Source: Oligoflexales bacterium
Lineage (GTDB): Bacteria; Bdellovibrionota_B; Oligoflexia; Oligoflexales; RGVZ01
Length of the DNA stretch: 29,733 nt
Assembly (NCBI GenBank): GCA_044236265.1
Contig: JBIIGV010000024.1
Coordinates: 1-29,733 of the forward strand
Direction of reading: 5' to 3'
The notes beneath the pieces are model-generated. The model saw nothing but the letters and a program-made list of their open reading frames with translations, did no database searches and was not told where the DNA came from. Within the stretch, counting starts at the first letter, position 1. Every line of letters starts with the position of its first letter. This document shows, in pieces, positions 419-24,495 of the stretch. The position numbers and the translations under genes are program-made.

Positions 419-1411
419 TTAGTCCAGCCAGAACATGCGCATACGCACATAATCGTGGATTAAGTTGTCCTCAATTGCACAGACGGAGCCCACAACATTT
501 TTTTGCAATCCGTCACGCCAGTTGGATTCAGTTTCACGGCGCTTAGCCTCACATGCTTCGAAGGTGGAATACTTCACGGACGTGAGATCTGTGGCCAATG
601 GCTGCATCACGATACCAGCAGCGTAGAGGTAAACGGTTGATGTATAGTTACTACCGCCACAAAAAAAGATGACCGACTGACCGTCCGCCCTCGAAAACAC
701 TTCCTGCATAACACTACGGTTGTTCTCGCAGGCCTGTAGAGTCCTAAATTGGCCCTCACCATATTGCACAAGGGGCAATCTTTTGTCCGAATAATAGAAC
801 GCGTGCATCGTTGTTCTATTCTCAGACGTTTTGATTTTCACCTTCACATGTTGTGCACCATAAGCTGCTAAGGTTGTTTTTAAAGTCCCCTCAAACGCCG
901 CGGGATCACCGTTCATTCCATGATAAAAATCTTTAGCGAGGTGATCTGGAGTCAGCTTTGGGGTTCCAAATCCATCAATTCGCATGGTCCACACACTCTC
1001 AAAATCCTCCCCACCGCGATCAAGGAAGCAATAGGCTAGAAGAGGCTCCAATCCGGTCGCTTGCTTAAAGGTTGCCAAGTCCTCATCGTAGTGAGCTGTG
1101 CAGTCTTCAGCGGAGTTGTAAAGCCCATGCACGTAGTCAAACTCATCGTACGTAGAGACCAAGTTAGCTAAAGTTGGCTTTGCGTATTCTATGACCAAGT
1201 CAAATGTGCGTGAGGGATTCACCTCGCACCCATGATTTAGAACGGTTGCTTCTGCCAATTGTGCGAACTTTGGCACAATCCATTGCTCCGAAGCCTGACA
1301 GTTCTGCTCCGTCGAGGCGATACGCGGAAGCCTGTAAGTATGAATCTCAGCAAATGCAGGCGATGCAATCAGAAACGCAAAAACTGTTGTCAAAAATGAG
1401 CGACGAATCAT
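419..1411 (-). CDS. Secreted hypothetical protein with four C-x22/23-C repeat modules
   Basis: 330-aa ORF, Sec signal peptide ending AFA|E, GGAGG RBS, ATGA overlap with the upstream gene; 8 Cys arranged in 4 regularly spaced pairs. Confidence 0.8.
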   Translation of the reverse strand: MIRRSFLTTVFAFLIASPAFAEIHTYRLPRIASTEQNCQASEQWIVPKFAQLAEATVLNHGCEVNPSRTFDLVIEYAKPTLANLVSTYDEFDYVHGLYNSAEDCTAHYDEDLATFKQATGLEPLLAYCFLDRGGEDFESVWTMRIDGFGTPKLTPDHLAKDFYHGMNGDPAAFEGTLKTTLAAYGAQHVKVKIKTSENRTTMHAFYYSDKRLPLVQYGEGQFRTLQACENNRSVMQEVFSRADGQSVIFFCGGSNYTSTVYLYAAGIVMQPLATDLTSVKYSTFEACEAKRRETESNWRDGLQKNVVGSVCAIEDNLIHDYVRMRMFWLD

Positions 1412-2973
1412 TTGGAAACCTCCATGAGTTCAATAAAGCTATGAGACTGCATAGGTCGCAAAATCCCCTGATTTGGAACCTTTAACTTGATACCCTTTTT
1501 TGTTCGCATACCGATATAGGCACCACCAGGACCGTCCGTATCAAGAGCAAACTTACCCGTAAAGGGATCAAAGGAAGTCTCCGAGAAAGGCTTTCTTGGT
1601 GATAAGTCTGTATACCATACATTACCCTGGATGGTGAGCGGAGAAAACGGGTCTTTTGAGCTCGTAGCGCGGTCGGACATGGCAACGATCATGTCAATAT
1701 TGAGCTTTCCGTCACTGAAACCTCCAGCCAACTTGGTGTCAAGTTTTGATGGATCAGATAGTAAAATGCTCCCCGAAGAGGCGAGAGCAAAGCGACCAAC
1801 GAAACCAAACCGACGGGAAAACCAACGCCCCTCAGCAACACCGCCGCCAATCCTGGTGATGGTCAGAATCATGTCAGTTGTGTTGTCCGAGCGATCGAAA
1901 ACCAGCTCCCCATCACCTTGGGTCAATGGTCTCGGGTCAAATTTAGTGTTGATTGATTCATCAGTATCCGTGTGCCCACCGTACCGGATGCTGGAAATAA
2001 CTGACACAAGTCCAGCTGCACGTTCCGCATCAGTTCCTGAGGTGCTCGGGTAGGTTGTAACAGAAATACTCATGGGACGGTAAACATCCATGCGCTCTAG
2101 ATGGACGAATCCCTTGTAAACGCCGTCAACACCTTCTTCAGGGGCTCGATCATCAACCTTGATAGTCCACTGAGGACTACTGACCTTAAACTCCATAACG
2201 TCACCGCGGACACTCTCTCCAGAGGAGCGGTTGTAACGACAGGTACCGCACGTAATTCCACCCTCATCGACAGAGCACGGCATTGATCCGTAAGCGCCGT
2301 GAAAATCAATGTGCCCAGTAAATATATCGTAGTCAGAATCGTGAAAAACTTTCGTGACGCAAGTACTTGCACCTGTGGGGCAACCTGCTCCTCCGTTATC
2401 GCCAATTTGAGCCATGATTATGAACGGCGCAAAAGGGTCCGTTCTATTCGTAGCGATAGGGTGTGACGGACTCGATTGAATCTGAAGCCTCCGCCCAACA
2501 CCTTCGCAAACACCTCGGTACTCGCCCCAAAGTCTTTGAACCAAAGGACGCTCAACTTTCACCGTATTTTGCTGCTGCAACTGAAGCTGCCCAACCACAC
2601 CAAGAGCTGTTCTTAGCTTAGCCTCCAAAGCCTCGCCACGAAAGGCTTCCACAATAAAGTGCAATTCTCGCTCGGCCCCGTCAAAAACGAGAGTTCCACT
2701 GGCTTTGTCGTAGGATACATTTCTGTATTCGTAACTAGCGTATTCATCGCTGTCAAAATTTCCAAAATAAAGCACCAACGTCGCGCGAAGCTTGATCGTT
2801 CGCTCATCTTCACTCTCTTTTATAAAGTCTAAACGTGCGGCTTGGTCTTGAGCGCGATGCTCGTGGTGTAGAAAACCGACAAAGCGACCGAACTCTGCCG
2901 ACGCAAAGGCCCCATTCGTTGCCGCAGTGCAAGACGACCACATGACAAACATGAAAACCATTAGGTATCTCAT
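1408..2973 (-). CDS. Secreted or lipoprotein hypothetical protein, beta-rich, with internal duplication
   Basis: Long ORF; likely start ATG 2973 (MRYLMVFMFVMWSSC..., possible lipobox) after a GAGGG RBS. Two similar halves (GRFVGFLH / GVYKGFVH; DPFAP..DIFTG / DPFSP..DPFTG). Confidence 0.75.
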   Translation of the reverse strand: MRYLMVFMFVMWSSCTAATNGAFASAEFGRFVGFLHHEHRAQDQAARLDFIKESEDERTIKLRATLVLYFGNFDSDEYASYEYRNVSYDKASGTLVFDGAERELHFIVEAFRGEALEAKLRTALGVVGQLQLQQQNTVKVERPLVQRLWGEYRGVCEGVGRRLQIQSSPSHPIATNRTDPFAPFIIMAQIGDNGGAGCPTGASTCVTKVFHDSDYDIFTGHIDFHGAYGSMPCSVDEGGITCGTCRYNRSSGESVRGDVMEFKVSSPQWTIKVDDRAPEEGVDGVYKGFVHLERMDVYRPMSISVTTYPSTSGTDAERAAGLVSVISSIRYGGHTDTDESINTKFDPRPLTQGDGELVFDRSDNTTDMILTITRIGGGVAEGRWFSRRFGFVGRFALASSGSILLSDPSKLDTKLAGGFSDGKLNIDMIVAMSDRATSSKDPFSPLTIQGNVWYTDLSPRKPFSETSFDPFTGKFALDTDGPGGAYIGMRTKKGIKLKVPNQGILRPMQSHSFIELMEVSK

Positions 2974-3215
2974 AAACCCTCTACTTTCCCGGACGCATCT
3001 AGGATTCTGGGCACGAAACTTGAACCATCCAGACAAAAGCTTTCTATAACGCCACTATGACGGGGGTCAACCCAACATTTTGACTGTATCACTCTGATAT
3101 TTAAGGTTTTTTAATCTGAGGAATTTTTTTTACCGCCCAGCCCCCAATTTCTCTCGAAAAAACACCCCAGAGATCCACGTGATACACTATTGAGGCCATG
3201 TCTTAAGGATGACGC

Positions 3216-5001: not shown

Positions 5002-5454
5002 ATGAAAACTTTAAAAAATAAATTGATAAAAATTAAAAACTTGGCGCCGTTGGCCTTAGCGGGTTCAGCATTGCTATCCCAAACAATTTTTGCAGCCGAC
5101 ATCACCGTTACCGGCGCACAAGCGCAACAGTTAGCTCAAACCCTTCAACAGCTTGGAGTTCAGTCATCGCAGGATGAGCAAGGCGGCCGAGTTCTCCTCA
5201 CACGAGAAATTAATTGTACCCGCCAAGTCACCCAAAATGTCCAAACAGACTGTATGGTGCATGAATATACCCAGGATATCCGTATTCAAACGCAAAGTGA
5301 CCTCGCCAGCCAATTGTATCAGCAACTGCAGAGTGCCGGCGCACAGTACGACTCCGATACCCCGGAAGAAACTAAGGTCGGTGTTTATATGCTGAGCTGC
5401 TACCAAAGCCTAAGGCCAGACCAATCCCAATGCCAAGGCCAGGCGCACAACTAA
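5002..5454 (+). CDS. Secreted Gln-rich hypothetical protein with two internal repeats
   Basis: Strong RBS TAAGGAG, signal peptide ending IFA|A; two similar halves, each with a C-x10/11-C pair. Confidence 0.8.
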   Translation: MKTLKNKLIKIKNLAPLALAGSALLSQTIFAADITVTGAQAQQLAQTLQQLGVQSSQDEQGGRVLLTREINCTRQVTQNVQTDCMVHEYTQDIRIQTQSDLASQLYQQLQSAGAQYDSDTPEETKVGVYMLSCYQSLRPDQSQCQGQAHN

Positions 5455-5489
5455 CTTTCAAAGAAAAAGAAAAACGAAAGGAATCTCGT

Positions 5490-6686
5490 ATGCAATCAAA
5501 AATAATCCCAGTGTCCACCATGGTCGGTGGTTTTTGGACAGCGTTACTATTGTCAAATGTAGCCCATGCAGCAAGCGACACCAAAGTGAATTTATGTAAT
5601 GAGAATGAACAAAGTCTCTATGTTTCTGTAGCTTATGAGCCAGAAGCCGGATCACCGTTTATGTCGCGCGGATGGTGGTCAATCCCAGCTAAAGAGTGCT
5701 CTGAAATTAGTTTCCCTCTCGGATCAGATAAGATTTTGCTCCATGCCGTTTCTGAGACCGGTGCGCTACAATGGGTGGGTGACCAAAAACTCTGCGTGAA
5801 CGTCTACGACAAATTCGATTTTGAGGACGCTGGCGCACGAAACTGTGCAGAAGAAGAAGGCTTTGAGACTAGGGGATTCAAAGAACTATCCGTTGCGGCC
5901 CTGACATCTCTTACACCAGGAGAAACTCCCAAATACAAGTTCATGCCAAGCGATGCGGTCAAAAGTGGATCACTCGTGAAAATCTGTAACGATTCATCCG
6001 AGGATGCCTACTTGTCATTTTCACAAAAAGCATCAGCAGCCACGAGCACACTAGTCGACGGTTGGTTTAAAATTGAACCGTCAAAGTGCTACGAGACGCT
6101 TCGACGACCTTCGGCTAACGAACTTCTGGTGTTTGCTCAGTCCTCATCAGGCCACATGCGATGGAAAGGTGAAGTCCCTCTTTGTACCGACGATTACGAT
6201 GGATTTCATTTCACGGACGCCCAAAGCATGACATGTGACGGTGACAATCAGAGATGGCAGCGATTCCGTAAGATTGACATGACGTCGTCATCTACAGATT
6301 TTGAGTATCGTTTGCGTGCAGAAGACGCTCAACCAGTTCGCTCGACTGTTAAAATCTGTAACACGCGGGACGAAAAATTGTACGTTGCCACGGCATGGGA
6401 CAACCTCGACTTTCCTGGTCAAGTGGTATCCATCGGCTGGCTCAATCTCGAACCGAACAAATGCTCTAACGACCTTGCGGTCAATGGTGATGCTCTATTG
6501 CTATACGTTGACAAAGATGACGGTGAAGCAGTTATTTCTGGCACAACTCAAGTCTGCGTTAACATAGAAGACGGCTTTGAATTCGGTAATTCTACCGCCA
6601 TGAATTGCAGCGGCGAAGATCTCACGAAACTCGGGTTTGCGTCCCAGCCAATTTCTGCTGGCGCAGTTCGCATCGACATACCTTAA
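5490..6686 (+). CDS. Secreted protein with three tandem DUF1036-like domains
   Basis: Start MQSKII (5490), signal peptide AHA|A; three repeats of (L/I)CN...YVxxA...GW(W/F/L)xIxxxxC...LC...F.F....C, the DUF1036 pattern. Confidence 0.8.
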   Translation: MQSKIIPVSTMVGGFWTALLLSNVAHAASDTKVNLCNENEQSLYVSVAYEPEAGSPFMSRGWWSIPAKECSEISFPLGSDKILLHAVSETGALQWVGDQKLCVNVYDKFDFEDAGARNCAEEEGFETRGFKELSVAALTSLTPGETPKYKFMPSDAVKSGSLVKICNDSSEDAYLSFSQKASAATSTLVDGWFKIEPSKCYETLRRPSANELLVFAQSSSGHMRWKGEVPLCTDDYDGFHFTDAQSMTCDGDNQRWQRFRKIDMTSSSTDFEYRLRAEDAQPVRSTVKICNTRDEKLYVATAWDNLDFPGQVVSIGWLNLEPNKCSNDLAVNGDALLLYVDKDDGEAVISGTTQVCVNIEDGFEFGNSTAMNCSGEDLTKLGFASQPISAGAVRIDIP

Positions 6687-13919: not shown

Positions 13920-15050
13920 ATGCGTTATATTTCGGTAGATGAACTTCGATCACTGATTGGACGCTCTGAGCCTTGTGTTAGCGTTTATGCACCGCTCACC
14001 GGAGATCGGGAAAAGGATCACAACACTTTACAAGACCTACTGAATCAGGCGACTGAAAGGGCGCGTGCAGCATTTCCAATGGTTTCGTTGCACTTTCGCG
14101 AAATCTCCGCATCTGAAGTGTTAAAAAACGTTGACCATGAAGGACAATGGAGTGGGATAGTTGTGTTTAAATCTCTATTAGACGAGCGATTCCATCCAAT
14201 AGAAGTATCGACAACGCCTCTCGTTGTAGTAAGCGATAGTTTTCATTTACGGCCGTTATTTAGCAAGCTTCAGACTAGTTTGGGTTACATCGCTATCCGG
14301 CTGGAGAGAGACCGGGTGCAAATGTTTCGTGGAAACAACGACGAAGTAAGCTTGGTGCGCCAATTTTTACAAGGAAAGCGTAGTCCCAACCTACTAAAAG
14401 ATGATCGGTTCAAAGAGCCGTTATCGGCGGGTGGAGAGAGGAGATACACCAACGCAGCGCGCCGTATGGCGCAGATGCAACTGGACAGAACAACTCTCAG
14501 ATTTTACCGCGAAGCAGACAAAGATATCCGACGCTCTATGGTTCGCGATGAGATACCAGTCATATTAGTTGGTGAGGATAGACTTATCAGCCTCTACAAA
14601 AGCGTTAACCGTCACCGCAGTGCTTTGATTGGTTCTGTGACGACTTCGGACGGCACCGTTCCCTCTGCAGAAGAGATTCAGAAGCGAGCCCTGGAACTCC
14701 TAGAAGATATTCATCGACGACAAGCTTTATTTGGAGCGGTTGAGTTTCGATACACGCGTGGGAAGGGTCGAGCCATCGACAATCTATCGCGAATCGCGGA
14801 AGCAGCTGCCCAGGGTCAGATAAAGTCTTTACTAATCCGCGCAGGGACAAACATTTGGGGTCGCGTGTTTCGCACGAGTGGTCGTGTGCAACTGGACACC
14901 CTGGGTGCGAATCCGATGGCCGATGACGTCCTGGATGATATTGGAGAAATGGTCTTGAAACATAAGGGACAAGTTTTTGTCCTGAAGTCTAACGAAATGC
15001 CAACCGCGGAGCCTGCGGCAGCCGTCCTGGTGCCGCGGACAGCCGTATGA
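13920..15050 (+). CDS. Bacterial archaeo-eukaryotic release factor homologue (baeRF3-like)
   Basis: AGGAGG RBS; PCVSVYAP, VVVSDSFHLRPL, PVILVG, AAAQGQIKSLLI, DVLDDIGEMVLKHKGQV and EMPT..AAAVL match the aeRF1-like baeRF layout. Confidence 0.75.
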   Translation: MRYISVDELRSLIGRSEPCVSVYAPLTGDREKDHNTLQDLLNQATERARAAFPMVSLHFREISASEVLKNVDHEGQWSGIVVFKSLLDERFHPIEVSTTPLVVVSDSFHLRPLFSKLQTSLGYIAIRLERDRVQMFRGNNDEVSLVRQFLQGKRSPNLLKDDRFKEPLSAGGERRYTNAARRMAQMQLDRTTLRFYREADKDIRRSMVRDEIPVILVGEDRLISLYKSVNRHRSALIGSVTTSDGTVPSAEEIQKRALELLEDIHRRQALFGAVEFRYTRGKGRAIDNLSRIAEAAAQGQIKSLLIRAGTNIWGRVFRTSGRVQLDTLGANPMADDVLDDIGEMVLKHKGQVFVLKSNEMPTAEPAAAVLVPRTAV

Positions 15051-15148: not shown

Positions 15149-17143
15149 CTAAAAATAGTAACCATAGCTTAGGCCGCCACCTCTGAGCGAACGATCAATA
15201 TGCCCAAAAAGAGAGATTTCATGAGCATCGTAAAGGAGGGTTGTCCATTTCAACTCGAACTGACGTTCCCATTCCCCTACCTGATCCGACCTGTAAAAGT
15301 AAAAAGGTTTATACCAGACTCCCTTTAGGGACACCTTAGTGGTTGATGATGCATCAGCCAATGCTCCCAGCATGGCACCCGGAGCTCCCTGGGTCGTATT
15401 AGCACCCTTGCAGCTCACCGCCAGACGAACCAGCCCTAACGCGAAAAATCTAGCCGAATTAACTCGTGTCGAGGCTCCAACCCCTCCGCCCATGGAATGC
15501 TGATGACAGCTTCCTTCAGCATCATCAACACTAACGGGAACTGACGAAAGACTAAACGTCCACGATAAAGGTTTCTTAACACGTCCCAACGGAGGAATCG
15601 ATAATACTTCAAACGGAGTCGCCGAATGAAGACGCAGAGTCGATTTGCCATCTGTCATATTTTGACGGAATTTAAACTCGAGCATTTTTAGTTCAAGCTC
15701 CCGCGAATAACCATGAGAGGGCGTCGCCAAATCATGGAGCGTTGGCCTCCAGTCAAAATCAACTGCTCGGACTTGCTCTGATTTTACTTGATAAACCTCT
15801 GCGGAAACACCGACGCGCATAGACCAATGACCACGATCAGGGCGTTCATCATATGGAATCTTATCTATCGGCTTTGGTGGAACCAAAATAAGTGAGCGCG
15901 CCTTTAGAAGATCGAGTCGTCTCTGCTTTTGTTTCTCCGGAAGTTTATTACCAACAACATCTTCATCAAAATCAATATAATCAATGGCAGCATCAATAAC
16001 GGCGGCCTTCTCGTCATTATTTACGCCAGTCAATACATCATCAATGATGACAGAATTTTGCTGAATCAATTTCTTTAGTCGAGCAACTCCATCATCATCG
16101 AGATAAGACTCCCGCTGTATATATGTCGACAAGGCCGATGGACGATATTTTGGCGACTTCGTAAGCCCAGGTTGGGCTACAACCGCCCGCAGCGTGTCGG
16201 CAGGCGTTGCCATGACATTAAATGATTTGGCCAAATTCATGCCAGGATTTACGGTTTCGAGAACGAGCAGCAGGATATAGGAGCAGTTTTCATCGATATA
16301 CCAATAATCAATCTTAACTGGCCCGACTTCCCAAAGAGTCAGCATCAAATTTTTGACCTGCTGCACTGAGATATTTAGCGGATACTCCCACAAGTCACGG
16401 CTTTCGGCGTTGTTGTATTCCTGCACTTTTAAATAATAAGGCATCAAACTGAACGTACCAGCAAACTGTCCGGTTAACCCCATAAGCGGGTAAAGCAGTG
16501 CATTGTCTGTTGTAGGATTAGCTGCAAAATTAACTGCGGAGTCCAACAATGCATTGGGCTCACCATCCCCTGGCCCCTTGCCGCGGTGTATCCTCAGAAA
16601 TGTATGCCCAAACATCGATGCGGGATTATTTATAAAGTAGGATGCGAACACAAGTGAGATACCCTGCGCCGATTGCTGCTGAAGAAAACGGTCCAGCTCC
16701 TTACAGGTGACTTTTGGAAGGAGTTCATTAGGGATCTGAAGATTTTCTACAATCCATGCAGACCGTCGCGGAAATCGACACAGCGCATGATCATCCGGCT
16801 TATCATTTATAACCGGAAGAAAAAGCGCGTCGATGGACGCATGTAGCTCAGAGTGAGGATTGGTTTTTCCATCTTTAGCGAAAAAAAACTCAGACGAGTC
16901 CACCACACTCGAGTTTCGGCCAGCCAAGCGAGTTACATATAAAAGTTGTGCGCGCCATGCTGGACTTCCGTGCAGCTCAATCTCATCAGCGCGCTTCTTC
17001 CATGTCTCAGCAGCTTGCAGCTGCTCAATCGCTATAGGAGCATTGGCTGCAGCAAAAAGCCCCGTTCCGCCCCCCCCACTCAGCATGCAAACCAAGAAGG
17101 CTTGCATGGTTAATTTGAGTGGAGATTTAGCGAAACGGAGCAT
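15149..17143 (-). CDS. DUF4105/Lnb_N-like domain protein with C-terminal putative outer-membrane beta-barrel (copy A)
   Basis: CRFPRR, NNPASMFGHTFLRI, YNNAESRDLWEY and YIDENCSY motifs; N-terminal signal peptide; alternating beta-strand C-terminus ending YGYYF. Confidence 0.85.
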   Translation of the reverse strand: MLRFAKSPLKLTMQAFLVCMLSGGGGTGLFAAANAPIAIEQLQAAETWKKRADEIELHGSPAWRAQLLYVTRLAGRNSSVVDSSEFFFAKDGKTNPHSELHASIDALFLPVINDKPDDHALCRFPRRSAWIVENLQIPNELLPKVTCKELDRFLQQQSAQGISLVFASYFINNPASMFGHTFLRIHRGKGPGDGEPNALLDSAVNFAANPTTDNALLYPLMGLTGQFAGTFSLMPYYLKVQEYNNAESRDLWEYPLNISVQQVKNLMLTLWEVGPVKIDYWYIDENCSYILLLVLETVNPGMNLAKSFNVMATPADTLRAVVAQPGLTKSPKYRPSALSTYIQRESYLDDDGVARLKKLIQQNSVIIDDVLTGVNNDEKAAVIDAAIDYIDFDEDVVGNKLPEKQKQRRLDLLKARSLILVPPKPIDKIPYDERPDRGHWSMRVGVSAEVYQVKSEQVRAVDFDWRPTLHDLATPSHGYSRELELKMLEFKFRQNMTDGKSTLRLHSATPFEVLSIPPLGRVKKPLSWTFSLSSVPVSVDDAEGSCHQHSMGGGVGASTRVNSARFFALGLVRLAVSCKGANTTQGAPGAMLGALADASSTTKVSLKGVWYKPFYFYRSDQVGEWERQFELKWTTLLYDAHEISLFGHIDRSLRGGGLSYGYYF

Positions 17144-17173
17144 CAGATACTTAACTACCGAAACATCAAAGCA

Positions 17174-17770
17174 TTAATTGTAGAGACGTACGCAGTTCTT
17201 GCTTAGATTCTCGTCACCTTTGATGACTTCCATATAACCCGATACGACAGCATCAGAGTTTTGCTCGGTGAAAAGGCTAGCATACTTTTGTTGGCTCAGC
17301 GCCTGGAATGCTGCCAAGTCACTGTCATTTTCTGCGCAACCAAGAATATCTGCAAACGCTTCGAGGACTTCGCCCTCGCCTTGGGACGCTTCTTTTGACA
17401 GCTGAGCATAGTTCATCTCGACGAATACTTTGCGCTCTTGAGCCGACGCTTCACCACCAGGTCCATCCTTACAGTTGGATGTACCAGTTGTGATTCCAAA
17501 AGTCTGACTGTAGGAGCAACCATTGGTCGTTGCAGCAAAAGCCTGCATAAATCCTGGCTTAGAGCCAATAACAATAGATCCAAGGCCGCAACCAGCTGGG
17601 CCGTACGCTGGCACATAGCCGCCGCCCGACGTATCGGATGTTTCACCAGAAGCATCTTTTTTCTTCTTCTTTGTTTTCTTTTTTGCTTCTTGCGCCATAA
17701 CTGACTCAGCAAAAACTCCAGAAAGCGCCAAGCTCAAAACACCTAGGGACAAATATTTGATTACTTTCAT
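17174..17770 (-). CDS. DUF3015 family secreted protein (cassette A, second gene; Lys-rich linker)
   Basis: Signal peptide VMA|Q; YGPAGCGLGS...AATTNG...QTFGITTGTSNC, then ASQGEGE and LGC. Confidence 0.85.
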   Translation of the reverse strand: MKVIKYLSLGVLSLALSGVFAESVMAQEAKKKTKKKKKDASGETSDTSGGGYVPAYGPAGCGLGSIVIGSKPGFMQAFAATTNGCSYSQTFGITTGTSNCKDGPGGEASAQERKVFVEMNYAQLSKEASQGEGEVLEAFADILGCAENDSDLAAFQALSQQKYASLFTEQNSDAVVSGYMEVIKGDENLSKNCVRLYN

Positions 17771-17809
17771 CTTATAATTTCCTTCTTAATAGGCTTTGAT
17801 TGTCAAAGA

Positions 17810-18307
17810 TCAGATTGCAACAAACGTGCAGCCAGTTGCTGTTGCCGGCACAGAGCGAAGCTCCGTCTTAACCGACTCAAGTACGGCATAAGCACCGGGA
17901 GCTGCGAAAATCTTCGCGTGTGATTTTTGAAGTTGAGCGTGCGCGGCTCCAGTAACATCTGCAGAACAACCCAAGGTTTCTGTAAATGCAGATAGGGTTT
18001 CGCCTTGGCCACGCGCCATATCCTTAGATAATGGTGCTAGGTTGTTTGCAATAAAATCCTGTTGACCCTGTAAAGCGGCTGCTTCAGCCGAAGAACCCGC
18101 ACAATTGGACGTGCCGGTTGTGATGCCAAACGTCTGATTACCGCTGGTACCGTTCAATGTTGCAGCAACAACCTGAATAATTCCCTTTTGTTTTCCGAAT
18201 ACGATAGAACCCAAACCGCAGCCTGCCATGCCGTAGCCTGCAGCACTCGCGACCTGTGCACTTACTGCAAACCCAGTCACCATCAACCCTAGAATTACTC
18301 GTTTCAT
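17810..18307 (-). CDS. DUF3015 family secreted protein (cassette A, first gene)
   Basis: Start MKRVILG (18307) after a GGAGAGG RBS; signal peptide ASA|A; YGMAGCGLGS...AATLNG...QTFGITTGTSNC, MARGQGE, LGC. Confidence 0.88.
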   Translation of the reverse strand: MKRVILGLMVTGFAVSAQVASAAGYGMAGCGLGSIVFGKQKGIIQVVAATLNGTSGNQTFGITTGTSNCAGSSAEAAALQGQQDFIANNLAPLSKDMARGQGETLSAFTETLGCSADVTGAAHAQLQKSHAKIFAAPGAYAVLESVKTELRSVPATATGCTFVAI

Positions 18308-18393
18308 GAGCCCCTCTCCATTTGAGTCCAAAAAGACATCGTTCAAGTTACAGGAACAAAAGCCGCTACTTTAGACACTGAATTTATGACACT

Positions 18394-18423
18394 ATTGTAT
18401 CCGACTTTTCTGGAACTAGGCAA
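18394..18423 (-). promoter_or_regulatory. Putative sigma-70 promoter for cassette A
   Basis: Minus strand TTGCCT-N18-TACAAT with an AT-rich tract immediately upstream; about 87 bp before ATG 18307. Confidence 0.45.
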
Positions 18424-18515
18424 TAGAATTGAAATAAATTGGTAACTTAGCCCCCAAGGCCTGCTGCGCATTGGGTTGCTGATCTCGATGATCATTGGTC
18501 CACAAGGAGCGTCGC

Positions 18516-19157
18516 ATGACCGAAGCTGGGAAGACAAGTTTAACAGCAATTGTTGCCGGTGCAACAGGCCTTGTTGGGCAAGAAATTGTACGTCAGCTCT
18601 CTGCAAGTCCACGTTATAGCAAGATCATCATACTCGTCCGCCGTGATACCAACTTAACAGCACTACCAAAAGTGGTGGCCCAACCGTTCCCGGGTAGCGA
18701 TGAAATACTTAAAGCCGACGAGGTTTATTGCTGCCTCGGCACGACCATCAAAAAGGCGGGAAGTCGGGAAGCATTCCGTCACGTCGACTATGAACTGGTC
18801 ATGCAACTGGCTCGCTGCGCAAAAAAGGGAAGCGTACCCAGGATGGCTGTCATTACTGCTATCGGCACGAGTTTATCATCACCTTTCTTTTACTCTCGAG
18901 TGAAGGCGGAAGTTGAGAGAGACCTCAAAGCAATGGCGTTTCCTCAGCTAGACATTTATCAGCCATCTTTACTTTTAGGAGACCGAACGGAGTTTCGCCT
19001 TGGCGAAAAAATCGGAGAGCTATTTGCAAAAGCTCTCGACCCACTTTTGATCGGCAGTTTTCGAATGTATGCTGCCATCGAAGCTCGAGAGCTCGCCAAA
19101 CATATGATTGAGCAAACCAACTCGCCTCGCCTTTCTTTCTTTGAGGCTAAAGCTTGA
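18516..19157 (+). CDS. NAD(P)-binding oxidoreductase, atypical SDR (YraR/TIP30-like)
   Basis: AAGGAG RBS; GATGLVG Rossmann motif, CCLGTTIKKAGS, VDYEL, FYSRVK, QPSLLLG. Confidence 0.9.
   Translation: MTEAGKTSLTAIVAGATGLVGQEIVRQLSASPRYSKIIILVRRDTNLTALPKVVAQPFPGSDEILKADEVYCCLGTTIKKAGSREAFRHVDYELVMQLARCAKKGSVPRMAVITAIGTSLSSPFFYSRVKAEVERDLKAMAFPQLDIYQPSLLLGDRTEFRLGEKIGELFAKALDPLLIGSFRMYAAIEARELAKHMIEQTNSPRLSFFEAKA
19032..19157 (+). repeat. Direct repeat copy 1 (last 42 codons of the oxidoreductase gene)
   Basis: Aligns without gaps to 22586-22711 (offset 3554); 106/126 identical by hand count; 52-bp perfect core at 19065-19116. Confidence 0.95.
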
Positions 19158-19160
19158 ATT

Positions 19161-19191
19161 TAATCGGGGACAATGGAATGGTCCCCGATTA
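19161..19191. terminator. Hairpin directly after the oxidoreductase stop
   Basis: TAATCGGGGAC-N9-GTCCCCGATTA, a perfect 11-bp inverted repeat; no clear U tail. Confidence 0.6.
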
Positions 19192-19203
19192 CTACCAATT
19201 AAT

Positions 19204-19233
19204 ATGGCATTGATGGCGAGTCATCAACGCCAT
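19204..19233 (-). terminator. Second hairpin, probable terminator of DUF4105 copy B
   Basis: Minus strand ATGGCGTTGATG-N6-CATCAATGCCAT (one G-U pair) followed by AT-rich sequence, 6 bp after the stop at 19240. Confidence 0.55.
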
Positions 19234-19239
19234 GAAATT

Positions 19240-21117
19240 TTAACGTAGGAAACGATTATACTTCACGGACACCGAATAGGAGTCGTGAAGCACTTTGGCC
19301 GATGCCTCAAGATCATTCAAATCACCGAATGGCGAAGACATCCCAAGCTCAATAATGGGCTCTCGTTTAAATTTATTCATAGCATTCAGTTCTACTCGAA
19401 CTTTAGCAGAAGCCTTCACCACTTTCTCCCATTCAGCCACAACGCCCAAGCCCGGAAAAAATCCAAGATGGTTGCGATCTTTACCCGAAAGGAAATGGGA
19501 ATAAATACCGTATTCAAAAAATCCCAACGCATGGGAATTTCCCCATCCATAATTACGGCTAAACTCAATATCTAAGCTGTATGGCTTTGCTGGCTGATGA
19601 TGTAATCGACCAAATGAGAAGCGAACGCCTCCACCAATTCCTGATTTAAGCGGAATTGCCGCCTGATAATTCTCGAGAAGCAGCAAGTCGAATTCATGGA
19701 GGCCGAGCTCCTCTTTATCCATATAGACGTCTACATCAAACACGTGAATCCCCATGCCAAGCATAAAGCCCGTAGACGTTGAGTTAAGGGCTTTTAGGGA
19801 AGGTCTAACGCCAATTAGTCCATATGACTTTTTACCTGCATAAAGCACACCAATTCTGATCGATTTCTCTGGAATGATCAAAACCGGATTTTCCCTCTCT
19901 GGAATCTCTATGTTAATCTGGGTCGTTGAAGGGTTTTTTGCGCGCGCAAACAATGCCCGTTGGCGAAGTAACGAATATTTTTCTGCTTTAGCAGGACCGG
20001 CAAGATTTTGATCAAATTCAATGAACTCAACCAGAGTCTCAAGCACCTCCGCTTGCCGGTTCAAAGAAAGCGTGGAAATATCAACGATTGAATCTGTATC
20101 GATCATTGATTTAACAAGCCCAAACTCACTTTCAGTCAACCCAGCTGATTTTGCCAGAAAACGGCGTCTAGAAGATGCTCGCACCGAGGATGGCTTTGGC
20201 TCACCAAGTGTTTGAACTAACTGTTTCATCGCCTCAATGGGCGAAGTCCAAACACGACTCCCAGCAGAAAATTGCACGCGAGGCTCAACTGCTTCAATAA
20301 GCTTGGCTATCAATAGGCTGCAATTTCGCGATAGGTAATAATAATCCGAGTATGCCGGCATAACCTCAAACAACGACAGCTCCAGGTCACCAAGCTGCTC
20401 TTCAGTTAAATTTAGACGGTATTCCCAGAGATCGCGACTTTCGTAATTGTTATACTGCTGGATTTTCATATGCATGGGTGCAACCTCATATACACCCGGA
20501 AACCAGCCAAGAAGCCCACCAGCAACATAATTCAAAACATTTACATCACCGTGTTTGGCTCCAAAAGAAATAATGGGATCAAGTAAGGCGTTGTGCTTTT
20601 CGTCACTTCCTCTTTTTTCAACGCGAAGAAAAATATGACCAAAATAAGAGGCCGGACTTTCCAGAAAATAACTTGAAAACACAACATAAATCCCGGTTGC
20701 CTTCATGGATCTAAACTCAGGACAATCTGCCGGAGGAATCTGGAGTTTGCCACCTAGGGCCTTAAGCAGGTATTTCGTTCGGCGAGGGAAACGACATTGA
20801 ACTTTGCGTCTTTCAGGTTGATCGCTAAATGCGTGTCTTGTGAACGCCAATAATTCTGCTTTTGGATTATTGGCACCGTCTGCAGCAAGAAAAAAGTCTG
20901 GCGCATCAATCAAGCTCGAAGGCTTTCCAAGAACAGACGGATGATAAAACAGGATCCGACTCCACTCGTCGTGATTTTGATATTGATATGATTCTATAAC
21001 TTTGAGCACAGGTGCGGGAACTTCAGCATGTGCATTCGTTGCTGAAAGAAAAACGCAAAGGACTGCAGCCATTATGGCTGCAGTCCTCATACTAAACATT
21101 AATAGCACTAGATTCAA
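19240..21117 (-). CDS. DUF4105/Lnb_N-like domain protein with C-terminal putative beta-barrel (copy B)
   Basis: CRFPRR, ESPASYFGHIFLRV, YNNYESRDLWEY and YLSRNCSL motifs; signal peptide AHA|E. Start may be ATG 21099 or 21090. Confidence 0.85.
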   Translation of the reverse strand: MNLVLLMFSMRTAAIMAAVLCVFLSATNAHAEVPAPVLKVIESYQYQNHDEWSRILFYHPSVLGKPSSLIDAPDFFLAADGANNPKAELLAFTRHAFSDQPERRKVQCRFPRRTKYLLKALGGKLQIPPADCPEFRSMKATGIYVVFSSYFLESPASYFGHIFLRVEKRGSDEKHNALLDPIISFGAKHGDVNVLNYVAGGLLGWFPGVYEVAPMHMKIQQYNNYESRDLWEYRLNLTEEQLGDLELSLFEVMPAYSDYYYLSRNCSLLIAKLIEAVEPRVQFSAGSRVWTSPIEAMKQLVQTLGEPKPSSVRASSRRRFLAKSAGLTESEFGLVKSMIDTDSIVDISTLSLNRQAEVLETLVEFIEFDQNLAGPAKAEKYSLLRQRALFARAKNPSTTQINIEIPERENPVLIIPEKSIRIGVLYAGKKSYGLIGVRPSLKALNSTSTGFMLGMGIHVFDVDVYMDKEELGLHEFDLLLLENYQAAIPLKSGIGGGVRFSFGRLHHQPAKPYSLDIEFSRNYGWGNSHALGFFEYGIYSHFLSGKDRNHLGFFPGLGVVAEWEKVVKASAKVRVELNAMNKFKREPIIELGMSSPFGDLNDLEASAKVLHDSYSVSVKYNRFLR

Positions 21118-21132
21118 AAAAGTTCCCGCTGA

Positions 21133-21672
21133 TCAGCTAAGACCTGAACACTTTGAGGCCACATTCGATGACTTTCCGCGATTTTTCAGGTTCTCCCATA
21201 CTTTTTCTGGATCATCAGAATTGTAGAGGTTACTGAAATCATCCTTATTAAACACGCCAAACGCTGCTTTGGTCTCGCTACTTTCGCAGCCAAATAGTTC
21301 TGCCAATGCACTCAAGTGCGGACCATTCCCCGAAGCAGCCTCCTTTTCAAGCGTTCGAAGATTAGCAGTTACGTATACCTTTTGCTCTGTCATAGCAGTG
21401 TTATTGTTATAATTACAATTTGAAGTTCCAGATGTGATAGCGCTTGAGACAAACCCTATGTACGTGTTGATCAAAGAAGCAGCTATCTGGGATTTTTTGT
21501 CTTTGCTATCGATAATGATCGAGCCTAGTCCACATCCAGCTAGACCAAATGGCGTACTGTAGGCTCTAGAGCCACCGCCAGATTTTTTCTTTGGCTCCGA
21601 TTCAGCACCATGAGCAATAGCTCCTAAAACGAGCGAAGCAAGCGTAAATATTGTAAAAAAATTGTTTTTCAT
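21133..21672 (-). CDS. DUF3015 family secreted protein (cassette B, second gene)
   Basis: AGGAG RBS, signal peptide AHG|A; FGLAGCGLGS...AITSGTSNC, AASGNG, FGC. Confidence 0.85.
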   Translation of the reverse strand: MKNNFFTIFTLASLVLGAIAHGAESEPKKKSGGGSRAYSTPFGLAGCGLGSIIIDSKDKKSQIAASLINTYIGFVSSAITSGTSNCNYNNNTAMTEQKVYVTANLRTLEKEAASGNGPHLSALAELFGCESSETKAAFGVFNKDDFSNLYNSDDPEKVWENLKNRGKSSNVASKCSGLS

Positions 21673-21707
21673 GAGTTTATTCTCCTAGTTCTAAAAATTT
21701 TGTCCGA

Positions 21708-22259
21708 TTAATGGCTGGTAGCCACTTCGAGAGTAGCCTTGTCATCTAGTGTTGTGCAGTGACGCATCAGCACGGCGTTGCGCATCATACGCGCCCGCGT
21801 TTCCTCAAAAACAGCTTTAACACCTGGCTGAGAAAAAACTCCGTCAAATTCATTTTTCATGAGCTTATTGAATTCGCCATATGCGGACTGTGGACAACCA
21901 AAGCTAGCGGCTAAGCCCGTAAGGGATTCGCCGGACCCCCTCGAAGCGTCGCGAGCAATCGAGGAGAAATTTGCGAACATGTAGTTATACTGATCAAAAT
22001 AAGCTACGGGCATTGCATTTTCGCTACACCCAGCAATATCAAAAGCAATAGACCAAACTTGTGATGTCGGGATGCCGACGGGAAGATTTGGCGAAATAGG
22101 TATAGTTCCATGATTGGTGGTGGCGGCAGACGTCTGCATGTCGCGAGGTCCAAAAATTCTCGTTCCGGCTCCACATCCTGCAAATCCGTATTCGTCAGCC
22201 ATCGTACTTGTGCTAGTTAGCGCGCCCAGCACTAACAAATATCTCGCCACTAATTTCAT
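21708..22259 (-). CDS. Divergent DUF3015 family secreted protein (cassette B, first gene)
   Basis: GGAGGT RBS, signal peptide TMA|D; YGFAGCGAG...AATTN, ASRGSGE, FGC. Confidence 0.78.
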   Translation of the reverse strand: MKLVARYLLVLGALTSTSTMADEYGFAGCGAGTRIFGPRDMQTSAATTNHGTIPISPNLPVGIPTSQVWSIAFDIAGCSENAMPVAYFDQYNYMFANFSSIARDASRGSGESLTGLAASFGCPQSAYGEFNKLMKNEFDGVFSQPGVKAVFEETRARMMRNAVLMRHCTTLDDKATLEVATSH

Positions 22260-22585
22260 GAGATAACCTCCAAAAAAGTAAACGGCAATGCTAGAGTTTT
22301 TGAATTTTGTTTACAAATTATTTCGTCATTCGTGACTAAATATTAAGGTTTCTATTTTGTCGCAATGGAGCTTAAGGCGTGAAATAGACGAAACAAGGCT
22401 CTTGTTCACTGTAATAACCTGTTGAGCTTTAGACTGCTAGAACTCGCAAAAAAATGACTTTCGAAATTATAAGAATGGCTATTTTTTCAACAAAAGATTT
22501 TCAAGTCTTGCTTCTCACTTAGTGGAGACGAGGACTCTGAAGATTATATCAAGGGCATTGTGATTCCAATTTTAGCGTTTTGTCA

Positions 22586-22711
22586 GCTCTGGACCCACCT
22601 TTGATCGGCAGTTTTAGGATGTATGCTGCCATCGAAGCTCGAGAGCTCGCCAAACATATGATTGAGCAAAAAAAGTCGCCCAATCTCTCCGTCGTTCAAG
22701 TTAAATCGTGA
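22586..22711 (+). pseudogene. Direct repeat copy 2: detached alternative 3' end of the oxidoreductase gene
   Basis: Translates ALDPPLIGSFRMYAAIEARELAKHMIEQKKSPNLSVVQVKS* versus ALDPLLIGSFRMYAAIEARELAKHMIEQTNSPRLSFFEAKA*; no upstream homology; followed by TAATCGGGGAC as in copy 1. Confidence 0.9.
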
Positions 22712-22950
22712 TTCTAATCGGGGACGATAAAATGAGACAGACAAGACGTCTGCCCTGAAAGGGCAACTCCGACGTTGCGGAATCGGCCCACGTGTCACGA
22801 TAAAGAGTTGGCTCAGACACAGCTCCTTCGAAAAAGGCACATGCAAGAATACCTTCCTAGTGCACTCTTAGGGCTTGATCCTATGTTGCCGATGCGGGAC
22901 AATTTTCCAATTGGAGAGTCTTTGGCATGATCCTACATAATTCCTCTAGG

Positions 22951-23187
22951 CTAAGGGCACTGACGGCATTTGCCGTCTTCTGGGCTCTTGTAGGCGGCCG
23001 GGTCTTGCATGCAAGCGTCCCTATAAATAAAGCCATAATTTTGCAGGACGTAAGGTTGTCCTGCTGGCGCAGTGGCTTCAGCAGATGGGCTTTTTTGCGA
23101 CTCTGATTTCGGGACCGGACTTTGGGGGGCGCAAGCAACAAATGATGCCAACGTGATTTTGCAGCGCCTCGACCAAGAACAAGACAT
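22951..23187 (-). CDS. Possible small lipoprotein-like protein
   Basis: 78 aa from ATG 23187; basic N-terminus, short hydrophobic stretch and FVAC lipobox-like motif, P/S/A linker, Cys-containing C-terminus; same strand as the upstream operon. Confidence 0.4.
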   Translation of the reverse strand: MSCSWSRRCKITLASFVACAPQSPVPKSESQKSPSAEATAPAGQPYVLQNYGFIYRDACMQDPAAYKSPEDGKCRQCP

Positions 23188-23240
23188 CAAAACTCTGAGC
23201 TTTTGAAGTCGCAAGATTTACGCAATGCAAAGATAAATAT

Positions 23241-24098
23241 TCAAAACGTAAAACCAGTCGCTACATGAGCGCCTACGGCAGCCGATGATTTAAATTTTAG
23301 ATTTTGCTCGATCAGATCATAGATCTTTTCGTCACTGTCGACCGTTGAAGAGCTATACAGCGGGACATGAAACTCAGGCCCAGCATGCAATGAAACCCTA
23401 TTGCGAGACACCAGTAGGAATTGAAAGCGAGATCTTAAAGATAAAGCTATGAGTCTCGCTCGGCCCTCGGATTCCACGCCGCCTGACGAAGGCTTCATAT
23501 TAACTTTGATCGTTGCAGTATCGTATACGAATGACAAATCGGACACCCAAGGAGCCTCGCGGTACCGCTCGCCAAAAACCCATCCCAAAATAAATGCACT
23601 GGAAGAATATTGAAACTGGTTCACCGTCCACGGCTCATTACTTAACAAAACAGTCCGACCCTCTAGTCCTCGGTGCCATAAATCACGACGAGCAAGCCCT
23701 CCGAGCAGCACTCCTCCGCGCGGCACAGAAAACTCAACCTCAGCACCGCCGAAGGGTGCCGTATGATAGTAACTTGCCGGGTGCGGATTCCCTTTTACGT
23801 CTGGGAACCGCGTATTGTAACGGATCGGGCCGCCACCTTGATCACCAACGATCAAAGAGACCTTTGCGGTTTGCTTGGTGTGAGGATACTTCCAGTCGCG
23901 AGCACTTTGCGGCATCTCGCCAGGTGGTATCTGGTCTGTTTGACCTGGAGGAAGCTGCGGGTCGGTTGCAAAAGTCGGAGCGGCCTGGTGTTTGGCTGGC
24001 TGAGCAGCGTGAACACATACCGCCGGTAAACACACAAAAACAGAAAATAGACTCGCAGGCGCGAATATCCTGCCTCTACCGCGTCTGGACTTAGTCAT
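23241..24098 (-). CDS. Hypothetical exported protein, probable outer-membrane beta-barrel
   Basis: Signal peptide VHA|A, P/Q-rich linker, alternating beta-strands, C-terminal ATGFTF; overlaps the arfB stop by 8 bp. Confidence 0.7.
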   Translation of the reverse strand: MTKSRRGRGRIFAPASLFSVFVCLPAVCVHAAQPAKHQAAPTFATDPQLPPGQTDQIPPGEMPQSARDWKYPHTKQTAKVSLIVGDQGGGPIRYNTRFPDVKGNPHPASYYHTAPFGGAEVEFSVPRGGVLLGGLARRDLWHRGLEGRTVLLSNEPWTVNQFQYSSSAFILGWVFGERYREAPWVSDLSFVYDTATIKVNMKPSSGGVESEGRARLIALSLRSRFQFLLVSRNRVSLHAGPEFHVPLYSSSTVDSDEKIYDLIEQNLKFKSSAAVGAHVATGFTF

Positions 24099-24495
24099 CG
24101 CGAACCTTCCTTCGCGCCTTTTTTACATCGGACCGCTGCCTTTTAACTTCAACGCGCTTACGTTGAGAGGAATAAGTTGGCTTGGTGGCAACCCGCTTCT
24201 TCGGAGGAAGCCACACGCGACGCAGCATGTCTTGCAACTTCTCGATGCAGCGTCTTTCATTCGTTGAGCGGTCACGGCTTTCATCAGAGTGAATCACCAC
24301 CACACCGTCAGACGTTAAACGGCTAGCAAAATTATCTCTAAATCGCTCTTTAACGTCCTCTGGCACCCATTCAGCTGCTTGGAGGTTCCAACGCATGATT
24401 GCTTTACTTGACGTCTTGTTGACGTTTTGCCCGCCGGGGCCACTGCTTCGCGCAAACGTGAATTCGAGTTCAGAGATGGGGATCAGTAGCGCCAA
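24091..24495 (-). CDS. arfB: Alternative ribosome-rescue peptidyl-tRNA hydrolase ArfB (YaeJ)
   Basis: RSSGPGGQNVNK motif, basic tail PKKRVATKPT...KRQRSDVKKAR; TTG start with an AAGGA RBS. Confidence 0.95.
   Translation of the reverse strand: MALLIPISELEFTFARSSGPGGQNVNKTSSKAIMRWNLQAAEWVPEDVKERFRDNFASRLTSDGVVVIHSDESRDRSTNERRCIEKLQDMLRRVWLPPKKRVATKPTYSSQRKRVEVKRQRSDVKKARRKVRDD

Follow-up and report, generated by a model that had tools for sequence, protein, structure and literature searches.

What is the role of two neighbouring three-gene cassettes, each consisting of two small DUF3015 genes and one large gene for an enzyme fused to a beta-barrel, in the bacterium that carries them? The cassettes, here termed A and B, occupy positions 15149–22259 of a 29,733-nucleotide (nt) stretch of DNA from an Oligoflexales bacterium (GCA_044236265.1, contig JBIIGV010000024.1), and this whole stretch is referred to below as the window. 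An earlier note, made from its sequence, had proposed an outer-membrane enzyme that acylates, cleaves or exports its own pair of small proteins. The cassettes represent a real, widespread and uncharacterised envelope module. The large protein is predicted to bind its DUF3015 partner directly, and the best reading, to which a probability of roughly 0.36 is given, is that the barrel-anchored Cys-His enzyme acylates a loop of that partner independently of Lgt.

All six open reading frames (ORFs) of the two cassettes were found on the minus strand, at the positions and in the order given by the earlier note. They and their main parts are as follows (aa, amino acids):

15149–17143, minus strand: AL, large gene of cassette A, 664 aa, with DUF7843 (residues 56–133), an Lnb_N permuted papain domain (151–323; catalytic-domain residues H180, N205 and C287), a helical docking region (about 376–423) and a 12-stranded barrel (443–663); start codon M1 or M14
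15152–15817, minus strand: predicted 12-stranded outer-membrane beta-barrel of AL (DUF7840, from the structure model), final residue Phe
15875–16018, minus strand: helical region of AL (about 376–423, with D384, L413, R416 and S417), predicted by co-folding to bind DUF3015
16283–16606, minus strand: catalytic Cys287 (16283–16285) and His180 (16604–16606) of AL, both invariant in 107 of 107 alignment rows
17174–17770, minus strand: A2, 198 aa, DUF3015 of the proximal type, with a Lys-rich N-terminal extension and a helical domain (116–172) predicted by co-folding to dock on AL
17471–17590, minus strand: Cys61–Cys100 loop of A2
17810–18307, minus strand: A1, 165 aa, DUF3015 of the distal type, with a Cys30–Cys69 loop and a helical domain (73–160)
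19240–21117, minus strand: BL, large gene of cassette B, 625 aa, domain order as in AL; H161 and C266, with Ser at the triad-Asn position
21133–21672, minus strand: B2, 179 aa, DUF3015 of the proximal type
21708–22259, minus strand: B1, 183 aa, DUF3015, the most divergent of the four and weakly grouped with the distal types

Searches against Pfam placed DUF3015 in A1, A2, B1 and B2 (E 9e-17 to 9e-41) and gave DUF7843, Lnb_N and DUF7840 for both AL and BL, the Lnb_N matches (E 3e-47 for AL and 3e-36 for BL) agreeing with the DUF4105/Lnb_N assignment of the earlier note. NCBIfam held no name for any of the six proteins, and the only DUF3015 matches in the genome are the four in the window. The closest named relatives are Oligoflexia of the Bdellovibrionota. 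AL and BL are 32% identical and both contain the FGH, ESRDLWEY and NC motifs, with CAT (His) at 16604–16606 and 20635–20637 and TGC (Cys) at 16283–16285 and 20320–20322, as had been read from the sequence.

A structure model of AL (AlphaFold2, 117 rows) reached a mean predicted local distance difference test score (pLDDT) of 92.3 and a predicted template modelling score of 0.89. It has the permuted papain fold that had been anticipated, with residues 158–340 matching TseH (6v98; Z 11.4, root-mean-square deviation (rmsd) 3.7, 150 residues aligned), YiiX (2if6; Z 10.2) and the Bacillus cereus protein 3kw0 (Z 9.7). The His-before-Cys topology is seen in H180, which opens strand 180–187, and C287, which precedes helix 289–296. 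Across 107 rows from diverse loci H180, Y243, R249, D250, Y280, N286 and C287 are invariant. Residues 443–663 form 12 strands with pLDDT mostly above 90, matching Tsx (Z 15.3, rmsd 4.2, 201 aligned), NanC (14.1), EstA (13.9), KdgM (13.8) and FapF (Z 13.4, rmsd 4.3, 206 aligned). The C-terminal barrel suspected by the earlier note is thus modelled for AL; for BL it is assigned by homology only, through a weaker DUF7840 match (E 1e-7). AL ends in YGYYF and BL in YNRFLR, and F, Y or W is the final residue in 69 of the 77 rows examined. The linker of AL (418–442) is Pro-rich and mostly non-helical, with no autotransporter match in Pfam. Counting strands from a periplasmic N-terminus places the two long conserved connectors, 470–482 and 515–527, on the periplasmic side, and the enzyme domain is therefore most likely periplasmic, beneath the barrel.

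The nearest studied relative of this enzyme is Lnb (Pfam Lnb_N, PF13387, formerly DUF4105). In Bacteroides it has five membrane helices and the residues Asn66-His49-Cys148, the Cys being required for N-acylation of lipoproteins (PMC11573676). Its permuted papain domain with Asn-His-Cys is as in AL, where N205 is the counterpart of the triad Asn. However, Lnb has five inner-membrane helices and no DUF3015 partner, where AL and BL have instead DUF7843, the helical docking region and the DUF7840 barrel. DUF4105 is described as a sister clade of the lipid-targeting Tox-Act1, swapping with Lnt in genomic contexts (PMC12994826). The permuted NlpC/P60 proteins TseH, YiiX and 3kw0 share the fold and His-before-Cys order with AL, but none carries an outer-membrane barrel. 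Both TseH and Tox-Act1 are effectors of the type VI secretion system (T6SS) (PMC12994826), and no secretion genes were recognised beside the AL/BL family among the neighbours inspected. By analogy the module enzyme is like the Lnb/LRAT-type acyl enzymes, yet not a member of Lnb.

The genome itself allows a direct comparison, as two more Lnb_N genes lie on other contigs (C128, L007:715-2025 and C17, L008:1378-2547), with Lnb architecture and membrane helices and 38% identity to each other. The His, Asn, Arg, Tyr and Asn-Cys of AL align with one of these proteins (hhalign probability 94%, E 1e-7), identity of AL and BL to both being 21–27% over short stretches. No hydrophobic 19-mer was found past the N-terminus in AL or BL, compared with four and at least three in the two Lnb-type genes. 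Since these two genes are present elsewhere and no Lnt was found above cut-off in this genome (88.7% complete), AL and BL are probably not the housekeeping N-acyltransferase. It may also be noted that Lnb-type N-acylation probably extends to this lineage.

The small proteins, whose signal peptides were judged by eye and hydropathy, consist of an N-terminal part with a disulfide loop and a helical domain. In the model of A1 the helical domain (73–160) is confident and the N-terminal part low-confidence. No clear match to this fold was found (best Z 5.3; none in Foldseek at E≤0.001; none by sequence in the PDB under E 0.1), a result that speaks neither for novelty nor for its absence. The small Gly-rich disulfide proteins of the earlier note need some correction: Gly makes up 9–13% of the whole proteins in the window and its enrichment is seen only in the first Cys-Cys loop, which spans about 40 residues and has 17% Gly, 23% Thr plus Ser and 11% Asn plus Gln over 107 rows. 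Only the first Cys pair is family-wide (107 and 106 of 107 rows), the second being present in 46 and 36. Conservation in DUF3015 is highest in this loop, with a mean top-residue frequency of 0.63 (0.71 in its core) versus 0.42 for the helical domain. Two other readings of this region were rejected. In 102 of 107 rows the stretch before the invariant Cys is polar, so that GxAGC is not a lipobox; in the four proteins of the window the Cys lies at position 29–61. As for a membrane-spanning loop, a hydropathy of 1.6 was reached by none of 107 loops.

A quick tree, sampling 30 of 87 single-copy rows, grouped 16 distal rows (SH-like approximate likelihood-ratio test (SH-aLRT) 81) and 11 proximal rows (96), the latter including the copy of B2 in a relative, G008; the other proximal rows did not resolve, and two distal-labelled sequences (L032 and L022) are probably unrelated, pulled in by iteration. 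The copies in this lineage sort largely by position, so that the pair of the A1 and A2 types is best taken, on these sequences, as ancient position-specific paralogues whose roles were divided long ago, and not as the product of a recent duplication. The enzyme also has a divergent clade (L124, L133, L139, L140, L146 and L148; SH-aLRT 100 for the four rows in the enzyme tree), and its partner is a DUF3015 type (DCGIGAALF...ATSNVxWD) that is itself divergent and is hardly recognised, or is missed, by Pfam. Some genomes (G201–G208) hold four to seven DUF3015 matches, several of them in frames of 340–420 aa that may be fusions, on contigs apart from the enzyme.

A similar arrangement was seen in Pseudomonas, where small secreted Thr/Ser-rich DUF2388 proteins are encoded directly upstream of an exported WGH/NNC enzyme. 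This DUF4105-like enzyme (L164:2056-4014, L165:1908-3863 and L166:1590-3548, by eye) lies behind one to three DUF2388 genes; its N-terminal domain carries HExxH and its C-terminus is helical, without a barrel. The operon may represent a parallel small-partner system without a barrel. Homology of DUF3015 and DUF2388 was considered but not supported, as the likeness of ATTN to ATSN and of ITSGT to FTSDT was lost after signal-peptide removal and shuffling (a probability of 2% in hhalign, with higher scores in 2 of 40 block shuffles), leaving an analogy only.

Co-folding of AL (residues 36–664) with A2 (52–198) gave scores of 0.82, 0.83 and 0.83, and all three controls scored 0.00. Of 157 solved complexes 116 reach the mark used for docking, as do 2 of 215 mismatched pairs; with our own alignments these figures are only approximate. 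The runs share at least 49% of their contacts, with a partner pLDDT of at least 64, and a score carried over from known structures is unlikely because no solved relative of AL or A2 was found by sequence. The result supports direct binding of A2 by AL through the DUF3015 helical domain, and with it the dedicated physical partnership proposed in the earlier note. In the predicted interface A2 116–172, centred on S129-Q130-G131, meets AL 380–423 (D384, L413, R416, S417) and papain-domain residues 196–200 and 235–245. Its core is conserved across the family (L413 in 103, R416 in 94, L200 in 99 and G131 in 107 of 107 rows). Its periphery differs between the cassettes, with AL and BL the same at 11 of 29 positions and A2 and B2 at 5 of 29, the near-identical G008 copy serving as a stand-in for BL. 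As the core docking residues are mostly common to both cassettes, cross-talk between the putative separate specificity sets of the earlier note is possible. Conservation over the whole interface (0.46) does not exceed that of the remainder of AL (0.47). Paired alignments gave 15 covarying pairs above z 5, versus 0–1 in three shuffles, and three of the top 15 fall in the predicted interface; at R416/S417 the signal is weak and confounded by phylogeny. Because of this confounding, and because the alignments are those used for the complex, covariation is not counted as independent support. The mirror-distance correlation of 0.88 is likewise expected from shared ancestry.

The linkage of the two families across genomes, which the earlier note had named as a check, was borne out. 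Loci were taken from the best 80 of 594 confirmed matches to the large gene, and in 74 of these DUF3015 was present within the fetched flanks; three of the other six end just upstream of the large gene and three have other genes there. The module was found in at least seven phyla among these loci. Seventeen of 30 relatives have both families, 12 have neither and one (G010) has the large gene only. In its own phylum (86 genomes) DUF7843 was found in 62 and DUF3015 in 61, that is in all carriers but one and never alone, the exception being the same genome as among the relatives. A distant order (121 genomes) has 47 carriers, with DUF3015 in 41, all within the 47, and two of the three exceptions viewed have a divergent DUF3015-like gene directly upstream. 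These co-occurrence counts are descriptive, kin not being independent. At least two large-gene matches occur in 29 of the 62 carriers in the phylum; multiple large genes per genome are thus common there, and only the side-by-side position is unusual.

A further gene was found to accompany the module. A serine alpha/beta-hydrolase, often with a lipobox, is present in 36 of the 80 loci (26 of the 47 with wide flanks), and 12 of 17 other carrier relatives have one next to the cassette. From this gene-order evidence the lipoprotein hydrolase is a frequent fourth gene of the module. An MlaA cluster lies near the module in 12 loci, mostly of Nitrospira. No secretion-system or defence gene was recognised among the recurring neighbour clusters inspected (10 representatives scanned), and PADLOC matched none of seven proteins. 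On another contig of the genome, C74 (L121:556-5078), an intact hydrolase directly follows fatty-acid-oxidation-like genes for an acyl-CoA dehydrogenase/hydratase and a thiolase (by eye).

The neighbourhood of DUF4105 and DUF3015 is already in print. In a 2023 supplement (PMC10318531) DUF4105 is described as papain-like with a deep pocket, with DUF3015 at position +1 in epsilon- and gammaproteobacteria and the function given as unknown; the available part of that source gives no function, barrel, physical interaction, hydrolase or mobility for the pair. A DUF3015 gene of Leptospira was reported to be down-regulated in vivo (PMC13066512). No functional study of DUF3015, the DUF4105 barrel fusion, DUF7840 or DUF7843 was found in the open full-text literature; the architecture may be described in supplements that accompany PMC12994826 and PMC11573676. 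Predicted docking, paralogue division and mobility were not found in print within that scope.

It is proposed that all three proteins, which have N-terminal hydrophobic stretches, would be exported by Sec and that the 12-stranded barrel predicted for AL would anchor the enzyme in the outer membrane, with its catalytic domain in the periplasm. The DUF3015 helices (F-x3-N...A-x-G-x-G-E) are predicted to dock on the surface formed by L199/L200 and D384/L413/R416, beside the segment with the invariant Tyr243. Cys287 may then form an acyl-thioester, as in Lnb/LRAT-type enzymes, with an acyl chain from membrane phospholipid, and the flexible Thr/Ser/Gly-rich disulfide loop would be the acceptor, giving a lipid-anchored periplasmic protein without a lipobox. 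The linked lipoprotein hydrolase could remove or recycle the acyl chains. Three observations favour transfer onto the loop: the studied enzymes that stand closest to this one act on acyl chains, the linked gene resembles that of a deacylase, and DUF3015 has both a domain for docking and a flexible stretch that is conserved and rich in hydroxyl groups. Although no other part of DUF3015 is as conserved, the loop is of low confidence when modelled alone, as would fit an acceptor segment. The protein-acylating enzymes in the cited papers (Lgt, Lnt, Lnb, LnsAB and Lit) act on lipobox clients at the cytoplasmic membrane. The broader proposal of a mobile, widespread, self-contained outer-membrane lipidation system, in which clients are recognised by a docking domain, the loop is acylated without Lgt or lipobox, the product is held or exported and the hydrolase reverses the reaction, is put forward slightly more tentatively.

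Several observations weigh against acylation of the loop. Acylation, substrate and acylated product are all putative and drawn by analogy. A stable, conserved interface modelled with high confidence would fit a permanent subunit or an inhibitor at least as well as a substrate, and the interface residues placed with confidence do not include the DUF3015 loop, so that nothing sets it in the active site. The triad Asn is replaced by Ser in BL and kept in only 90 of 107 rows, and permuted NlpC/P60 enzymes include hydrolases and peptidases besides transferases (PMC12994826). A barrel of 12 strands is the size of export channels such as FapF and the autotransporters, which a role as anchor only leaves unexplained. 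One viewed locus (G121) and genome G010 carry the large gene with no DUF3015 detected. The hydrolase is patchy (1 of 11 loci in Myxococcota and 3 of 16 in Pseudomonadota), and cassette B lost it in this genome.

The confident and conserved docking interface and the near one-to-one co-occurrence would be equally at home if DUF3015 were a permanent subunit (an activator, lid or acyl carrier) of an enzyme that remodels phospholipids or lipoproteins in the outer membrane, with a lipid or another envelope protein as acceptor and the hydrolase in the same acyl cycle. The envelope-lipid neighbours described above, namely the hydrolase and the MlaA cluster, would suit such a role, as would Lnt and SecDF beside DUF4105 in epsilonproteobacteria (PMC10318531 supplement). 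Such a subunit does not readily explain why there are two ancient position-specific paralogues per enzyme, or why some genomes have up to six or seven DUF3015 matches against one or two enzyme matches, and a lipid substrate for it is hypothetical. This role is doubtful when taken by itself, and nearly as likely as acylation of the loop.

The resemblance to the Fap system suggests a different role for the barrel, in which the papain domain would cleave or unlock DUF3015, the barrel would export the protein or its loop, and the paralogues would assemble as major and minor subunits on the surface, all from one polypeptide. A single Fap operon encodes a Cys enzyme of the periplasm, a barrel of 12 strands and several small paralogues exported by Sec, and the system requires both the periplasmic Cys protease FapD and the barrel (PMC5557850). 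FapF was the top Foldseek match of the AL barrel (E 1.6e-6), although it ranked first among many barrels and ties with the other 12-stranded ones (Tsx, NanC, EstA, KdgM). The two persistent paralogue types and the low-complexity loop, of low confidence in the monomer model, would also fit. In Fap, however, the C39 peptidase FapD is a protein of its own, FapF contains a coiled coil and a helical plug, and the subunits have N/Q-rich repeats and stay unfolded (PMC5557850). The AL/BL enzyme is instead fused to its barrel and is of the YiiX/TseH/Lnb kind, with no C39 match in Pfam. DUF3015 has no N/Q-rich amyloid repeats; its loop is G/T/S-rich, and its helical domain, which is folded, often disulfide-bonded and predicted to bind the enzyme, would probably not pass a 12-stranded pore in the folded state. 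The link to the hydrolase is also left unexplained, and export of this type is considered unlikely.

It might further be supposed that the large protein is a lipid-attacking weapon delivered through vesicles or membrane contact, with DUF3015 proteins as periplasmic inhibitors whose loop blocks the active site, in the manner of effector and immunity. The T6SS effector TseH is among the closest folds, Tox-Act1 forms the sister clade (PMC12994826), and the small secreted genes stand in tandem upstream of the enzyme. The cassette is mobile, divergent and patchy within the genus, and frequent in the phylum (62 of 86 genomes). On the other hand, the docking core and loop are conserved across phyla and not diversifying, cassette B is under purifying selection, and the inspected neighbour clusters and PADLOC gave no secretion or defence genes. 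Orphan immunity genes are common, whereas DUF3015 without the enzyme was seen in 0 of 86 and 0 of 121 genomes. A role in attack and immunity thus appears improbable. Least probable is a second, outer-membrane N-acyltransferase doing the work of Lnb on ordinary lipoproteins with DUF3015 as chaperone, for which the shared Lnb_N domain and triad and the lack of an Lnt match above cut-off might be cited, but two Lnb-architecture genes with membrane helices are already in the genome, the module is absent from 24 of the 86 phylum genomes searched, and N-acylation normally precedes transport to the outer membrane (PMC11573676).

With acylation of the loop kept as the best reading, the placing of an Lnb-type catalytic domain on an outer-membrane barrel, together with an obligate partner without a lipobox, points to acyl chemistry in a new compartment and on a new kind of client. 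If true, Gram-negative bacteria would have a second way of anchoring envelope proteins by lipid, passed among lineages in the form of complete cassettes. Precise targets for mutation in two families of long-standing unknown function are provided by the catalytic Cys and by the predicted interface, in which R416, L413 and D384 face the A-x-G-x-G motif, and the two divergent cassettes side by side offer a natural comparison of cognate and non-cognate pairs.

The presence of two cassettes in the window was confirmed, but the description of them as a twice-repeated module requires revision, as they are not a local repeat; they appear rather to be a resident cassette A and a divergent, horizontally acquired cassette B. 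They are not contiguous, having an oppositely oriented gene between them, and several features of this region were not in the earlier note, namely a direct repeat around cassette B, the hydrolase remnants and the link to the hydrolase gene itself:

18495–19157, plus strand: NAD(P)-binding (HIM1/epimerase-like) gene, outside the module; cassette B probably integrated at its 3' end
19031–19180, plus strand: left copy of a 150-nt direct repeat, the 3' end of the NAD-binding gene and bases downstream
19204–22516, minus strand: block, probably acquired horizontally, of a terminator-like hairpin, BL, B2, B1, the intergenic region and the start of the hydrolase remnant
22475–22580, plus strand: two remnants of the lipoprotein alpha/beta-hydrolase (22475–22516 and 22518–22580), divergently transcribed, lacking about 565 nt between them and truncated at the 3' end
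22585–22734, plus strand: right copy of the direct repeat, 83% identical to the left; an orphan 3' end of the NAD-binding gene

The block 19204–22516 is 92% identical to one in relative G008. The genes that flank the G008 block keep their order on another contig of this genome, where they are only 74% identical, and that site is empty here (C37:10315/10385). Synonymous distances between the window and G008 are 0.21–0.29 for the cassette B genes and at least 1.8 for three flanking genes, and the cassette B genes have omega values of 0.10–0.15, indicating purifying selection. The hydrolase is intact in the G008 block, where the window keeps only the two short remnants. An intact hydrolase of 70% identity lies on contig C74, and the same hydrolase is 93% identical and intact in G006, where it stands in front of an A-type cassette, which argues that cassettes and hydrolase have been reshuffled. 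In a quick tree BL fell on a long branch and not as the sister of AL. Local tandem duplication of A into B was rejected on this ground and on the 92% identity to G008; mis-binning of the G008 contig was rejected on the 74% identity of its flanks. Cassette B is therefore likely to have arrived recently from another lineage, and these sequences are most simply explained if a block of four genes was recently gained by horizontal transfer, through recombination at the 3' end of the NAD-binding gene, and then lost its hydrolase. An empty site (a joint that skips cassette B) was not seen in the four runs examined of 22 listed, and no integrase or transposase was recognised by Pfam among the 26 window ORFs scanned. 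Matches to mobile elements comprised nine plasmid records, several of them chromosome-sized, and three phage records, all under 60% identical.

The layout was also compared with a sequencing run of another study (X7), whose contigs cover 15410–19096 and 19087–22650 with a repeat node of double depth between them. This agreement makes an assembly artefact unlikely, and the X7 strain has the same layout with a few per cent differences. Its contig diverges from the window at 15410, so that the last 85 or so codons of the AL barrel and the DNA beyond may vary among strains. Strain contigs with joints of about 343 and 443 nt at 22717–23240 suggest a variable or repeated intergenic element just past the right repeat.

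Scans of the window for promoters and terminators gave numbers at chance level (8 versus 11.3 and 11 versus 9.8), with no terminator between the small and large genes. A perfect 14-bp hairpin at 21058–21088, in the signal-peptide coding region of BL, could dampen translation of BL relative to B1 and B2, the overall scan being at chance level. Elsewhere in the window, at 419–3036 and 5430–6686, lie a protein with three DUF1036 stretches and two ORFs of 330 and 542 aa for which Pfam gave no match. The gene at 23241–24098 encodes a 285-aa protein with a signal-like N-terminus and a beta-rich C-terminus ending in Phe, with no Pfam or NCBIfam match, which is possibly a small outer-membrane barrel. 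A homologue of baeRF3-type release factors (13920–15050) converges on AL and, together with a gene for an RF-1 domain (24091–24495), makes two ribosome-rescue-like genes within 10 kb.

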